Source: Holosporaceae bacterium
GTDB taxonomy: Bacteria > Pseudomonadota > Alphaproteobacteria > UBA3830
NCBI GenBank assembly: GCA_031258475.1
Contig: JAIRMS010000046.1
Coordinates: 1 to 34,180, forward strand
Direction: 5' to 3'
DNA length: 34,180 bases
The notes under the pieces were generated by a model. It was not told the DNA's origin. It did no database searches and saw nothing but the letters and a program-made list of their open reading frames with translations. Shown here one piece after another: positions 7,243 to 13,284 of the stretch; the first letter of the stretch is position 1, and each line of letters begins with the position of its first letter. The position numbers and the translations under genes were made by a program.

Positions 7243-8553
7243 ATGGAATTTGTTAGTCCTCTGTGGTCGGTCCCTTTTTTGGGAATCATTCTCTCGATGT
7301 CGTTTTTGCCACTTCTGGGCCCAAAATTTTGGGAAAAATACTCATGCTATGTTCCTTTGTTTTGGTCGGCGGTATATTTACTTCCGGTTTCCTATTGTTT
7401 TGGCTTTTCGAAAATCGCTCCAGCCATTTTTGAGCCGATACTTGCCGACTATATTCCTTTTATAATTCTAATTGCCACTCTGTACGTTGTTTCCGGAGGA
7501 ATTTTTGTGGATTTTCCCAGGGGAAACGGACCTCTTTTCAACTCCCTGTTTTTATTTTTTGGAAGTATCGTGGCGGGATGGATAGGAACCACCGGAGCGG
7601 CAGCTCTGCTAATTCGTCCTTTTTTGCGTGCGAATTTGGGACGAAGACACACGACCCATCTGATGGTTTTTTTTATATTTCTAGTTGCCAATGTTGGAGG
7701 AGCGGCTACTCCGCTGGGTGATCCTCCGTTGTTTATAGGATTCCTTAAGGGAATAGATTTTTTTTGGTTTATAAAGCATTTGTATCCGTTCCTGTTCGGT
7801 ACGACCACTGTTCTTTGTCTGCTATTTTTCATAATAGATTTCATATTGTTTAGAATTGATCTAGGAATCTCCTATGACAAAGGCAATGAACCAGTTTTCA
7901 GGATCCAGGGTTCGTCGAATATTATTCTAATAATATTGATTTTGCTAAGCGTTATTTTTTGCAATTTCAAAGGCGGATTTATGCTATGCGGAGAGAATTT
8001 TTCATACTCTTCCATCCTAAGAAACTTTTTACTTTTGCTTATCTCATTGATTTCTCTAAAAATTACTCCGGACGAAATCCGCATAAAAAATAGTTTCTCG
8101 CTTGCTCCGATAAAAGAAATCGCCGAGCTATTCGCCGGAATTTTTATAACGGTCACTCCAATTATAAATATACTGCATCAAGGAATTAATGGGGAATTTA
8201 GAAATTTATTTCAGTGGATTGCTCCACAGGGGGAATTCATTGCCGACAGATGTTTCTGGGTCAGTGGAGCGCTATCTTCGATTCTAGATAACGCTCCCAC
8301 ATTCCTTATTTTCTTCCATCTAACGGCCGGCGATCCGCATGTTCTAATGACGTTAAAGTCGAATATTCTAACGGCCTTTTCCCTGTCGACGGTATTTATG
8401 GGAGCGCTGACGTACATTGGGAATGCTCCGAATTTAATAGTAAAGTCCGTATCAATCACCCATGGATTGAAAGTTCCATCATTCCTTGGATATATGATAT
8501 GGTCGTTCGCAATATTACTGCCGATTTTCGCGGCAATCTCATGTTTTCTATAG
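7243..8553 (+). CDS. ArsB/NhaD-superfamily ion transporter (annotated in relatives as a sodium:proton antiporter)
   Basis: 436 aa with about 11-12 TM helices. It has the N-terminal PFLGIILSMSFLPLLGPKFWEKY motif, GGAATPLGDPPLFIGF and a C-terminal ILDNAPTFLIF segment. Confidence 0.55.
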   Translation: MEFVSPLWSVPFLGIILSMSFLPLLGPKFWEKYSCYVPLFWSAVYLLPVSYCFGFSKIAPAIFEPILADYIPFIILIATLYVVSGGIFVDFPRGNGPLFNSLFLFFGSIVAGWIGTTGAAALLIRPFLRANLGRRHTTHLMVFFIFLVANVGGAATPLGDPPLFIGFLKGIDFFWFIKHLYPFLFGTTTVLCLLFFIIDFILFRIDLGISYDKGNEPVFRIQGSSNIILIILILLSVIFCNFKGGFMLCGENFSYSSILRNFLLLLISLISLKITPDEIRIKNSFSLAPIKEIAELFAGIFITVTPIINILHQGINGEFRNLFQWIAPQGEFIADRCFWVSGALSSILDNAPTFLIFFHLTAGDPHVLMTLKSNILTAFSLSTVFMGALTYIGNAPNLIVKSVSITHGLKVPSFLGYMIWSFAILLPIFAAISCFL

Positions 8554-10676: not shown

Positions 10677-12752
10677 CTAGTCTCGAACCTCAAAGGAGAT
10701 ATTTTCGACACCCCCTATTTTAAAAAATATTTTTAGGAATCTGCATTTTTCGGCAAACTTTTTAATTCTTGAAATATAAACGCTCGTTACGATGAGAGAA
10801 CGGTTTTGCGTGCCACTTCTTTCTATAACATCTACGCCGTTTATGCCCTGCCCTCTTAATTCATAGTCTGCGAACAGAAACACCCTGTCTTTTTCTTCGA
10901 GAGAATTAATGAAATCAACCGTCTCCTGTCCCTGAGTGAAACATGCTGCTTTAATATTTCCACCGAGGCTTGCGAATCGATCTTTCCAAATTTCATGAAT
11001 CGACGCATCGTCGTCCAATACAACTACGGTGTCGCCTTTATATAAAACCACTCTATCGCTGAACCAACTCGGAGCATCACATTTGGGAAACGTGAGCGTA
11101 ATTTCGGTGCCGACGTTTTCAGTGGACTTGACAGACATCTTACCATTCGTCGCCTGCAAAGTGTCCGTAATTTGCTGCATGCCAATGCCATGTCCGGCCT
11201 TTTTGCCCGTAACTGAAATACCGGATGTAATTTTATTGATAATATTTTGCGGCATACCTTTGCCATTGTCTTTTATGCATATCTCAATAAGCTGGTCTTT
11301 TATGATAAAATCTACGTCGATGAACCCTTTCCGATCACCAATAGCCTCCACTGCATTATCCAATAGATTAGAAATCATACGACAAAAACTGGAATAATTA
11401 CCTTTAATGAAAGTAAAATCCTGTGGCGGATTGCATTTGTAATTAAACGTTATATCCTTGCTCATATTCAGGCTCTTTTTGTTATTGACCATTTCCTGCA
11501 AGCCTAACCGAACACAAATATAATCCTCTTCTTTTACGGAGAAGTCCTCATTTTTATGATACTTTTCGAGTAGACTATTAAGACTATAATCTATGTTTGC
11601 TATTACGTTTCTAAACGCAATATGATCCTTTTCCGGGAGAATGCTGCAATTACGATTTAACAACATGGACAACGTGAGCAACGGCGAGCGAATATCATGC
11701 GCTATTTGTCCAGCCAGCCTTTGCATCTCTTTCTGCTTTGCTAACTGCTGGAGCTGTTTCACAGCCGTCAGATCAACGGCAAGCCCTATAACCCCCTCCA
11801 CATTGTCATTAATTATCAGTGGAGCCTTTATGCTATAATAGGTCTTGCCATTATAATGCTCTTCCTTGGAGATCTGCTTTTTCGTCCGTATAACTTCCGA
11901 AGTTGTGCTCCAAGACTGCTGGCTTAATTTTTTCGCGTTGACATCGCCAATTATACTGTCTAGAGCGTAGTTTTTGTATATATGATTGCCGAATTTATCG
12001 ATCACGAAGAAGTTAACTTTTTCGACTTTTTCCTTCATGAATGTGACCACTTCCCTGTCGATCATGTTACTGTGCAGCTCGCAATGCTTGGAATTTCGCT
12101 GCGCCCATCTGGACGTTTTATATGCAAGATGAAAAACCGGGCTATTGTAGCGCTTCATGGCGTTTTCCATACAACGAGCAAGGCTCATGGGATATACCAA
12201 ATTTGCACCGCGAAGAAACGCACATACATACGCACACTCCTCCAACATAAAATCAACACAATCCTCCAATCCTCGATTGCCCTTATAGGCTGCCACGGCC
12301 GAATCGGCATACACAAGATCTCTAAATTCTCTTATGATTCCGTTACCATCTTGATCTCCGCCGTAGTCCGCTAATATTTTCTTATGCCAATATTTGAATT
12401 CGTCAGTTTTAATACCATCAGCCCAGGATTTTACGGTCGTATCGACAGTCAAGTTATCGATATAGTCTTTATTATTTAAAAACCACATTGTGGGAACGTC
12501 AGATTCAGAATATTGAGCAAATTCCGGAATACAATGCCTATACAGATATGAAGTATCCGTAATAATTATTTTCTTTATCTTATTCTTGATTGATGTGCCA
12601 TTTATTGTATTTACGAGATCCTCAAATCCCTCCCCAGTTTGCGAAGCGCAGGCATACGATATAACAATATCCAAAACCACGCTATTATCAGCCGCGGATT
12701 CAAAAAAACTTTTTGCCTCGGCGGCCCATTTTACGTTTCTTTCCACAGTCAC
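10677..12752 (-). CDS. Soluble hybrid sensor histidine kinase: unassigned N-terminal domain, then PAS-like, HisKA, HATPase and receiver domains
   Basis: 691 aa. The GTG start at 12752 sits 6 nt after GGGAGG (+ strand 12759-12764). H-box QIAHDIRSPL (H352), N-box NLLDNAVEA, G1 DNGKGM, G2 GHGIGM. Receiver: VVVLDDD, FADYEL (D629), LIVTS. No TM segment. Residues 1-235 have no standard sensor motif. Confidence 0.85.
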   Translation of the reverse strand: MTVERNVKWAAEAKSFFESAADNSVVLDIVISYACASQTGEGFEDLVNTINGTSIKNKIKKIIITDTSYLYRHCIPEFAQYSESDVPTMWFLNNKDYIDNLTVDTTVKSWADGIKTDEFKYWHKKILADYGGDQDGNGIIREFRDLVYADSAVAAYKGNRGLEDCVDFMLEECAYVCAFLRGANLVYPMSLARCMENAMKRYNSPVFHLAYKTSRWAQRNSKHCELHSNMIDREVVTFMKEKVEKVNFFVIDKFGNHIYKNYALDSIIGDVNAKKLSQQSWSTTSEVIRTKKQISKEEHYNGKTYYSIKAPLIINDNVEGVIGLAVDLTAVKQLQQLAKQKEMQRLAGQIAHDIRSPLLTLSMLLNRNCSILPEKDHIAFRNVIANIDYSLNSLLEKYHKNEDFSVKEEDYICVRLGLQEMVNNKKSLNMSKDITFNYKCNPPQDFTFIKGNYSSFCRMISNLLDNAVEAIGDRKGFIDVDFIIKDQLIEICIKDNGKGMPQNIINKITSGISVTGKKAGHGIGMQQITDTLQATNGKMSVKSTENVGTEITLTFPKCDAPSWFSDRVVLYKGDTVVVLDDDASIHEIWKDRFASLGGNIKAACFTQGQETVDFINSLEEKDRVFLFADYELRGQGINGVDVIERSGTQNRSLIVTSVYISRIKKFAEKCRFLKIFFKIGGVENISFEVRD

Positions 12753-13284
12753 CAGAATCCTCCCTACCCAAAAATTTCCAACGATGCAACTGCAGAGCGA
12801 CAGAAAGCTCCGGCATCATTGCGAACAGAACAATCCACAAAAGCAGTGCATAACTGAACCACACACCCCTGAGGTGATTTTATACACAAACGCTCCCACT
12901 TATACAACTTACAACTGTACACAGCTTACATGATACAATCTTTAACTTGGCATGCGCAAGAATAATTTTTTTTTGTGAGATATCACAACTTGCGAGAAGC
13001 ATTTTATTCTAGGCGACGAGAGGAAAAAATACTCTCTCCAAATAAGGGAAACAGCGATTACATTGTAGCCTGAGGATTGTTGGTAGCGAAGATATTGAGG
13101 AAGATTTACGCTATAAGAATTCACGGACAGCGAGTAATTTGCGTCTTGGTTTGAAACTTGAAGGTGCAGTTTCTGGATATTTGGTCACGTATAGATTGAA
13201 AAATGGATCGGAAGGATTTAGCATCACTCGGGGACTGAAGGTGAATTTTATGTTTATAAAAAAATTAGTGTGGCAGGTAAAATC

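Follow-up and report, generated by a model that had tools for sequence, protein, structure and literature searches.

A cyclodipeptide synthase-like domain fused to a soluble hybrid histidine kinase in symbionts of termite and ruminant guts

The contig of a Holosporaceae bacterium analysed here (GCA_031258475.1, JAIRMS010000046.1 positions 1-34,180; this whole stretch of 34,180 nucleotides is called the window) contains an uninterrupted open reading frame (ORF) at 10677-12752 on the minus strand, whose soluble product of 691 amino acids joins a cyclodipeptide synthase (CDPS)-like domain to a PAS domain, a histidine kinase core and a receiver. Judged by profile, structural model and residue alignment, the N-terminal domain is an XYP-type CDPS homologue, its enzymatic activity being putative. 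The window gene is the fused form of a module made of a PQ-loop transporter with three transmembrane (TM) helices, a CDPS-like protein, a PAS histidine kinase, together with a response regulator. The parts of this system are known, but their coupling is undescribed in the literature searched.

The assignment of the N-terminal domain, proposed earlier from motif order by a sequence-only reading of the window, is favoured by three kinds of evidence: profile searches of the PDB, structure prediction and residue alignment. With the single sequence as query, phmmer placed a cyclodipeptide synthase (5ocd) first among PDB sequences at E 0.0052, a lead that was then confirmed by a family profile. Residues 1-254 have 40 homologues, all from Endomicrobium or termite-gut Alphaproteobacteria and none with a Pfam domain over the region. 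The profile built from them (A1) gave CDPSs as its top five PDB matches, at 1.7e-7 to 6e-6 (5ocd 1.7e-7, 5mlp 3.4e-7, then 9i5m, 5mlq and 9iam), and nothing else notable. The AlphaFold model of the domain (predicted local distance difference test, pLDDT, 87.9; predicted TM-score, pTM, 0.81) leads to the same enzymes, since ranks 1-38 of a Foldseek search of the PDB are all CDPSs. Three XYP enzymes lead this list (E 2.6e-11 to 1e-8, TM-score 0.62-0.71), the best match being 5ocd (E 2.6e-11, TM-score 0.62/0.71), and tyrosyl-tRNA synthetases appear only after the CDPSs, at E of about 1e-2.

The XYP CDPSs of Fluoribacter dumoffii (5OCD), Rickettsiella grylli (5MLP) and Nocardia brasiliensis (5MLQ/9IAM) thus resemble the window domain in fold (Foldseek E 1e-9 to 1e-11, TM-score 0.62-0.71) and in the motif order Ser, L-x-R-H, W-x-x-x-N, x-x-x-E-E, Y-P; such enzymes, too, occur in intracellular bacteria. 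The window domain differs from them by its low identity (14-18%), by lying below Pfam detection and by having Phe at the position of AlbC Y178 together with Tyr71.

The Pfam CDPS search suggested with the original proposal left the window domain undetected: neither Pfam nor NCBIfam gave a CDPS match on the whole protein or on residues 1-254, and PF16715 gave none at E up to 10. The missing match reflects the low sensitivity of the model for this branch and does not argue against the domain; reliance on Pfam alone would therefore have led to a wrong rejection of the CDPS reading. PF16715 also misses clear XYP-like stand-alone relatives (no match for P0164 and P0167, 19.9 bits for P0177), and the whole branch of CDPS relatives that escapes it goes under the annotations 'hypothetical' or 'PAS domain' protein. 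The gap to the recognized enzymes is bridged by intermediate sequences. A domain-only profile (A2) compared with 1.84 billion representative proteins gave 284 matches, which form a continuum that starts in the fused family (E <1e-30) and reaches stand-alone proteins 220-380 amino acids long (1e-28 to 1e-8). One of the latter, P0085, matches 5ocd at 2.7e-8 on its own; another, P0183, passes the Pfam CDPS model with 37 bits, and some others approach it. A word-index search with P0085 alone retrieved only P0085 itself, but a profile of the stand-alone proteins (A5) retrieves at about 1e-30 proteins that carry PF16715 and are named 'tRNA-dependent cyclodipeptide synthase' by NCBI. Moreover, hhalign of the fused-family profile with that of the stand-alone relatives gave a probability of 100% and E 6.4e-40. 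Among the marks of the CDPS superfamily, the window domain has the fold, the sequence homology, the Ser, the Glu and the Tyr-Pro; it lacks the Tyr of AlbC position 178 and stays below the PF16715 threshold.

Active-site residues were placed by hidden Markov model (HMM) alignments to Rgry-CDPS and Nbra-CDPS and tied to AlbC numbering through the published equivalence of Nbra S34, Y172, E176 and Y194 with AlbC S37, Y178, E182 and Y202 (PMC13062777); conservation was counted in 25 full-length relatives. When the codons were translated, S32, F168, E172 and Y187-P188 stood where the sequence-only reading had put them (Table 1). The HMM alignment also bore out its view that the motif order matches the CDPS landmarks, that the XYP-marking Tyr-Pro stands at the last site and that F168 replaces Y178. 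In the Y-x-x-E-E motif, E172 aligns with the second Glu and F168 with the Tyr. The neighbouring E171 is invariant, as are R72, W90 and N94 (25/25 each), and H73 is kept in 24/25. The Ser at position 32 is replaced by Cys in one relative; the S37C variant of AlbC is active (PMC3105412). Three residues past S32, C35 (Cys in 23/25) is the 'X' of XYP, a non-Asn residue at AlbC position 40; together with Tyr-Pro at 202-203 it assigns the domain to the XYP subfamily, to which the nearest structures also belong.

Two published observations bear on the replacement at position 168: the Y178F variant of AlbC has poor activity and yields less acyl-enzyme (PMC3105412), and Nbra Q69 hydrogen-bonds both the catalytic Tyr and the aminoacyl amine (PMC13062777). 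The window protein has Tyr (Y71) at the Q69 position. Y71 and F168 occur together in 58 of 65 members of the fused family, whereas the distant relatives, in raw counts that ignore kinship, show non-Tyr71 with Tyr168 in 58 cases, Y71 with F168 in 6, non-Tyr71 with F168 in 4 and Y71 with Y168 in 8. From this pattern we infer that the hydroxyl may have been relocated and function not lost, Y71 being the candidate compensating residue. Retention of catalysis is also predicted from the conservation of the domain, which with a mean pairwise identity of 46% is as well kept as the kinase core (43% in the DHp and 43% in the catalytic ATP-binding, CA, domain) and preserves its Ser, Glu and Tyr-Pro. In addition, the residue equivalent to Y187 is required for the cyclisation step itself (PMC5935735); mere binding would not require it, and its invariance argues that cyclisation is retained.

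These data speak against a pseudo-enzyme, in which catalysis would be lost and the CDPS fold would serve as a ligand-binding or scaffolding input, for example for cyclodipeptides made elsewhere in the gut. Such a reading could draw on F168 in place of an essential Tyr, on the absence of a Pfam CDPS match and on the decay of many Endomicrobiellum copies described below. We nevertheless regard it as very improbable, because Ser, Glu and Tyr-Pro are retained in almost every intact copy, because the conservation of the domain equals that of the kinase core, and because stand-alone relatives with Tyr at 168 occupy the same type of operon.

The remainder of the protein is a hybrid histidine kinase, as had been recognized from H352, D629 and T656. 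The full-length AlphaFold model, which rests on an alignment of 27 relatives, has a pLDDT of 85.4 and resolves the five domains delimited in Table 1, from an N-terminal alpha/beta domain to a C-terminal (beta-alpha)5 domain. Its top Foldseek matches are PAS/LOV histidine kinases, including YF1 (4gcz), WalK, VicK (4i5s) and ThkA (E 1e-13 to 1e-21). The PAS domain is the best conserved of the family (mean pairwise identity 51%), and its subtype recurs in kinases adjoining stand-alone CDPS-like genes. Pfam detects HATPase_c at residues 455-557 (E 4.8e-15), HisKA weakly (343-366; 29 bits in the relative L039) and Response_reg weakly (E 0.13), the cut-off of the last being passed by the collinear relative L010_0 (36.5 bits); NCBIfam adds partial matches to numerous sensor kinases. 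The phospho-acceptor H352, in AHDIRSPL, is invariant in all 25 full-length relatives, and the receiver signature D580-582, D629, T656 and K678 is kept in 18-22 of 19-22. The protein thus combines an H-box His in the DHp domain, a GHKL ATP-binding domain and a C-terminal receiver with acidic pocket, Asp, Thr and Lys. No TM helix was found in it, the peak 19-residue Kyte-Doolittle mean being 1.18, in agreement with the earlier claim of a soluble kinase. A comparison of the receiver-region profile with PDB sequences was set aside: its top match, dispersin, is spurious, and 3kcn matches weakly at 0.005.

The window gene is no isolated case but one of a sizeable fused family and part of a wider operon type in which a CDPS-like gene accompanies a kinase. 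When one genome per species was scanned, 67 fused loci came to light, almost all of them from termite and ruminant guts and belonging to symbiont lineages (Endomicrobiellum, Holosporaceae). The hosts are Holosporaceae and other alphaproteobacterial metagenome-assembled genomes (MAGs; termite gut, and rumen, red deer and yak samples), Candidatus Endomicrobiellum and Endomicrobium, which are endosymbionts of termite flagellates, and one Prevotellaceae MAG. Closest to the window gene are those of RUG14145, with 62% identity, and of a red-deer MAG, with 60%. The search for orthologues that had been proposed showed the architecture to be kept, about 20 loci being collinear with the full window protein. 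The family has three architectures: without receiver (~591 amino acids), with one receiver (~691-717 amino acids, the window type) and with two (~803-827 amino acids). The last, CDPS-PAS-HK-REC-REC, in which a second receiver-like domain forms the C-terminal ~110 amino acids, was seen in L004, L010, L011, L027, L035 and L044.

Several small genomes hold 3-5 copies of the fused gene, as in one Endomicrobiellum MAG with L006, L013, L020, L036 and L043. Many copies are cut off by contig ends or disrupted by stop codons or frameshifts, a pattern suggestive of copy expansion and subsequent decay. The module is both enriched and multiplied in reduced genomes of gut symbionts of termites and ruminants, where regulatory genes are usually lost. 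At the alphaproteobacterial locus L010:1085-5799 two fused copies stand in tandem. The Prevotellaceae MAG, from termite gut, has at L047:6001-6630 a CDPS-like ORF of 214 amino acids with 44% identity and without the kinase part, which may have arisen by truncation of a copy, by transfer or through erroneous binning.

The sole recurrent neighbour found when genes were clustered across 68 loci is a PQ-loop gene of ~90 amino acids with three TM helices (SemiSWEET-like; PF04193, 32.5 bits), which lies directly upstream and on the same strand in 13 fused loci. The unfused relatives show the same association of functions. Histidine kinases are found near the stand-alone CDPS-like genes in all eight loci examined, directly downstream in seven and two genes upstream in one, and most of them have a PAS domain of the same subtype as that of the window gene product (28-40% identity, E 1e-11 to 1e-17); a PQ-loop gene is present in four of these loci and a response regulator in several (Table 1). 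By contrast, annotated CDPS genes of Photorhabdus and Pelomonas, taken as controls, lie in clusters with 2-oxoglutarate (2OG)-oxygenase, MFS and AraC genes and without a kinase. Given fusion in 67 loci and a kinase beside 8/8 stand-alone genes, the window gene is a Rosetta-stone fusion of the CDPS-like and PAS-kinase parts of the module.

Some of the stand-alone loci have peculiarities of their own. L070:4001-5584 (P0142), on a 632-kb metagenomic contig, encodes a protein of 527 amino acids with two tandem CDPS-like domains, in an operon with PQ-loop, histidine kinase and response regulator genes. Two loci, L070:6714-8368 and L072:2698-4342, have in common a response regulator of 330-336 amino acids, whose C-terminal ~200 amino acids match no Pfam family, and an opposite-strand protein of 215-219 amino acids that looks by sequence like a putative XRE-type helix-turn-helix protein. 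P0086 (382 amino acids) and P0119 (536 amino acids) are stand-alone CDPS-like proteins with long low-complexity C-terminal tails rich in Ser, Pro and Gln.

An early survey found CDPS proteins only as stand-alone enzymes (PMC2922099); known fusions comprise the CDPS-P450 protein 'CDPS 71' (PMC5816076), CDPS-methyltransferase and CDPS-ABC transporter proteins. In these the CDPS domain is likewise N-terminal in a larger protein (PMC5816076, PMC5767969). However, known CDPSs are stand-alone or joined to tailoring domains, and the known fusions are NYH-type, actinobacterial and have tailoring or export partners, whereas the window protein unites an XYP-type domain with a signal-transduction partner consisting of PAS, histidine kinase and receiver. 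Soluble PAS kinases (YF1/FixL type, ThkA, the cytoplasmic part of VicK/WalK) share with it the PAS-DHp-CA order and the folds (Foldseek E 1e-13 to 1e-21), but none has an enzyme of CDPS or aminoacyl-tRNA synthetase fold upstream of the PAS domain. In the full-text literature searched, including that on Endomicrobium/Endomicrobiellum, Holospora and Legionella, no account was found of a CDPS paired with a histidine kinase, response regulator or PQ-loop protein, so that the earlier claim of an undescribed architecture stands within that search; other papers may exist.

Outside the CDPSs, two kinds of system offer comparison. CqsA-CqsS, LqsA-LqsS and LuxM-LuxN are gene pairs of an autoinducer synthase and a sensor kinase; of these proteins, CqsA is named in PMC13220807. 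Their kinases are membrane receptors for an outside signal, whereas the window kinase is soluble with a cytoplasmic PAS domain; their synthases work by pyridoxal phosphate (PLP) chemistry or acyl transfer, are not tRNA-dependent and are not fused to the receptor, unlike the CDPS-like domain described here. In GCN2, the eukaryotic eIF2-alpha kinase with a HisRS-like domain, a protein kinase is likewise fused to a domain that descends from an aminoacyl-tRNA synthetase. That domain is class II-like, binds uncharged tRNA and is attached to a Ser/Thr kinase, in contrast to the class I-like CDPS fold with catalytic residues and the histidine kinase of the window protein. Although cyclodipeptides have frequently been suggested as bacterial signals, the literature searched describes no dedicated CDPS-based pair of synthase and receptor; the CDPS genes of intracellular bacteria, too, have had no known purpose.

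The mechanism that we tentatively prefer, and consider possible, is a synthase-receptor circuit of autoinducer type based on a cyclodipeptide. The CDPS domain would take two aminoacyl-tRNAs and release a cyclodipeptide via aminoacyl-Ser32. The product would equilibrate across the membrane, through the PQ-loop/SemiSWEET-like uniporter where one is encoded, and its level would be read by the cytoplasmic PAS domain, which would set the autophosphorylation of H352. Phosphate would then pass from H352 to D629 and on to a further partner. In the endosymbionts of gut protists the circuit would be compressed into one protein. This model fits because the cyclisation Tyr is invariant, because the family of the transporter partner is one of facilitative, bidirectional carriers and not of pumps, and because the kinase is soluble.

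Several points weigh against this model. F168 in place of AlbC Y178 is the one departure from the CDPS catalytic set; the compensation by Y71 is drawn from the alignment, and the covariation counts behind it ignore shared ancestry. Product, substrate and ligand of the window protein are putative only. Joining a synthase to its own receptor also carries a risk of self-activation, something that quorum sensing in its classic form avoids. No PQ-loop gene or remnant was found 5' of the window gene or elsewhere in the window by tblastn with PQ-loop proteins. No response regulator or Hpt protein is present among the window ORFs of at least 150 amino acids, as had been claimed before, smaller ORFs not having been examined exhaustively; tblastn of the window with receiver, response regulator, GerE and XRE queries gave no further match. 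Finally, positions aligned to Nbra substrate contacts vary little and conservatively among the paralogues; the idea that paralogues differ in their substrate pocket was therefore dropped, and the multiple copies are not obviously multiple signal channels.

A different use of the same domain would be that of an aminoacyl-tRNA sensor following the logic of GCN2, whose HisRS-like domain, on binding uncharged tRNA, switches on the kinase to which it is attached. Binding of one particular charged tRNA, or slow aminoacylation of S32, would report the amino-acid supply via the PAS domain, and the PQ-loop protein would carry an amino acid. The CDPS domain is N-terminal to the kinase, the usual place of a sensor, and the family hosts appear to be endosymbionts dependent on host amino acids. 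Basic residues are conserved at positions of acceptor-stem contacts in Nbra (R5 and K8, R/K in 24-25/25; K58, 25/25; R144, R/K in 25/25), and Phe at the Y178 position slows acylation and turnover in AlbC (PMC3105412), which suits a state-holding sensor. We find this reading rather unlikely, since Y187 and P188 are invariant while being superfluous for sensing alone, since the Y71/F168 covariation resembles catalytic repair and not loss, and since the CDPS-like protein of the unfused operons is a polypeptide of its own, for which a hypothetical protein-protein contact would be needed. Its covalent version, in which a specific charged tRNA acylates Ser32 and the slow occupancy of the acyl-enzyme, slowed further by the Tyr-to-Phe change, is read via the PAS domain, also seems unlikely. 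If true, endosymbionts would have a two-component system that reports on tRNA charging, and bacteria a counterpart of GCN2 acting through an enzyme intermediate.

The cyclodipeptide might also be an output directed at the protist host or at competitors, its synthase being controlled within the same protein by a PAS domain that senses redox or a metabolite; the PQ-loop partner would then act as exporter. Several intracellular bacteria that are not related to one another have CDPS genes, for which a role in host manipulation was proposed (PMC2922099), and isolated CDPS domains of multi-domain proteins are active, as shown for CDPS 71-P450 (PMC5816076). Yet outputs under two-component control normally follow the receiver, whereas the CDPS domain here precedes the sensor PAS, and the stand-alone operons encode response regulators of their own, whose output domains are different ones, which implies targets of the phosphorelay beyond the synthase. 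Regulated biosynthesis of this kind is thus quite unlikely. Should a signalling function prove true, whether by the cyclodipeptide circuit that we prefer or by a tRNA sensor, the module would add a new class either to bacterial chemical communication or to the sensing of tRNA charge.

Table 1. Features of the window gene and its upstream region, and gene order at loci with stand-alone CDPS-like genes
Feature or locus	Positions	Strand	Basis or gene order
Whole gene: CDPS-like / PAS / DHp / CA / receiver	10677..12752	-	ORF list; full-length AlphaFold model, pLDDT 85.4; collinear relatives in ~20 loci
CDPS-like domain, XYP type, residues 1-242	12027..12752	-	Profile against PDB; model pLDDT 87.9; Foldseek; hhalign
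S32, acyl-accepting Ser (AlbC S37, Nbra S34)	12657..12659	-	Alignment; 24/25 Ser, 1 Cys; codon checked
Y71, at the Nbra Q69 position	12540..12542	-	Alignment anchored on R72-H73; covaries with F168
F168, for AlbC Y178 / Nbra Y172	12249..12251	-	Alignment; Phe in 24/25
E172, catalytic Glu (AlbC E182)	12237..12239	-	Alignment; Glu in 24/25
Y187-P188, AlbC Y202 and XYP-marking Pro	12189..12194	-	Alignment; 25/25
PAS-like domain, residues 246-327	11772..12017	-	Model secondary structure; Foldseek PAS/LOV kinases; weak Pfam PAS_4 and dCache_1 in relatives
DHp / HisKA helices, residues 329-400; phospho-acceptor H352 at 11697-11699	11553..11768	-	Model; H352 and D353 in 25/25 relatives
CA domain, residues 411-556	11085..11522	-	Pfam HATPase_c
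Receiver, residues 575-690: D580-582, D629 (10866-10868), T656, K678	10683..11030	-	(beta-alpha)5 pattern, pLDDT 81-95; signature residues
Shine-Dalgarno GGGAGG, 6 nt 5' of GTG	12759..12764	-	Sequence read directly
Gene-free spacer of 517 bp, kinase start to divergent hslV	12753..13269	.	ORF list; tblastn with PQ-loop proteins negative
L069, P0102			PQ-loop (opposite strand); CDPS-like, PAS-HK; two more PAS-HKs flanking (HK, histidine kinase)
P0085			CDPS-like, HK, RR (RR, response regulator)
L070/L071, P0142			PQ-loop, tandem CDPS-like, PAS-HK, RR-like protein
L072, P0110			PQ-loop, CDPS-like, PAS-HK, RR
L073, P0087			PAS-HK two genes upstream
L075/L076, P0093			CDPS-like, then ORF of same PAS subtype
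L077, P0164			CDPS-like, PAS-HK, PQ-loop, receiver
L078, P0135			CDPS-like, HK

The window gene begins with GTG at 12752, and its GC content (~0.41) is like that of the flanking DNA, with no compositional anomaly at the gene. The spacer that separates it from hslV is unusually long and occupies the position of the PQ-loop gene of many relatives. Neither tRNA genes nor Rfam families were found in the window. Scans for promoter and terminator signals around the gene were discarded, their scores being no better than those of shuffled sequence, and no terminator was found between the kinase gene and the downstream potG-like gene; the ABC ATPase encoded downstream in the window is not conserved as a neighbour in the clustering of the 68 loci. 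The window gene had been called the only clearly non-housekeeping one of the stretch, and the other ORFs of at least 150 amino acids indeed all encode housekeeping or transport proteins, including YidC, S6, RsmH, a PotG-like ATPase, HslVU, RecJ, LpxK, Obg, AspRS, BipA and FabF. As a minor point of annotation, at 8499-8553 the last 55 nt of the CitMHS_2 transporter ORF that comes before are also covered by the listed RsmH ORF; because the NCBIfam match to RsmH starts only at residue 21, the true start of RsmH probably lies further downstream than listed.

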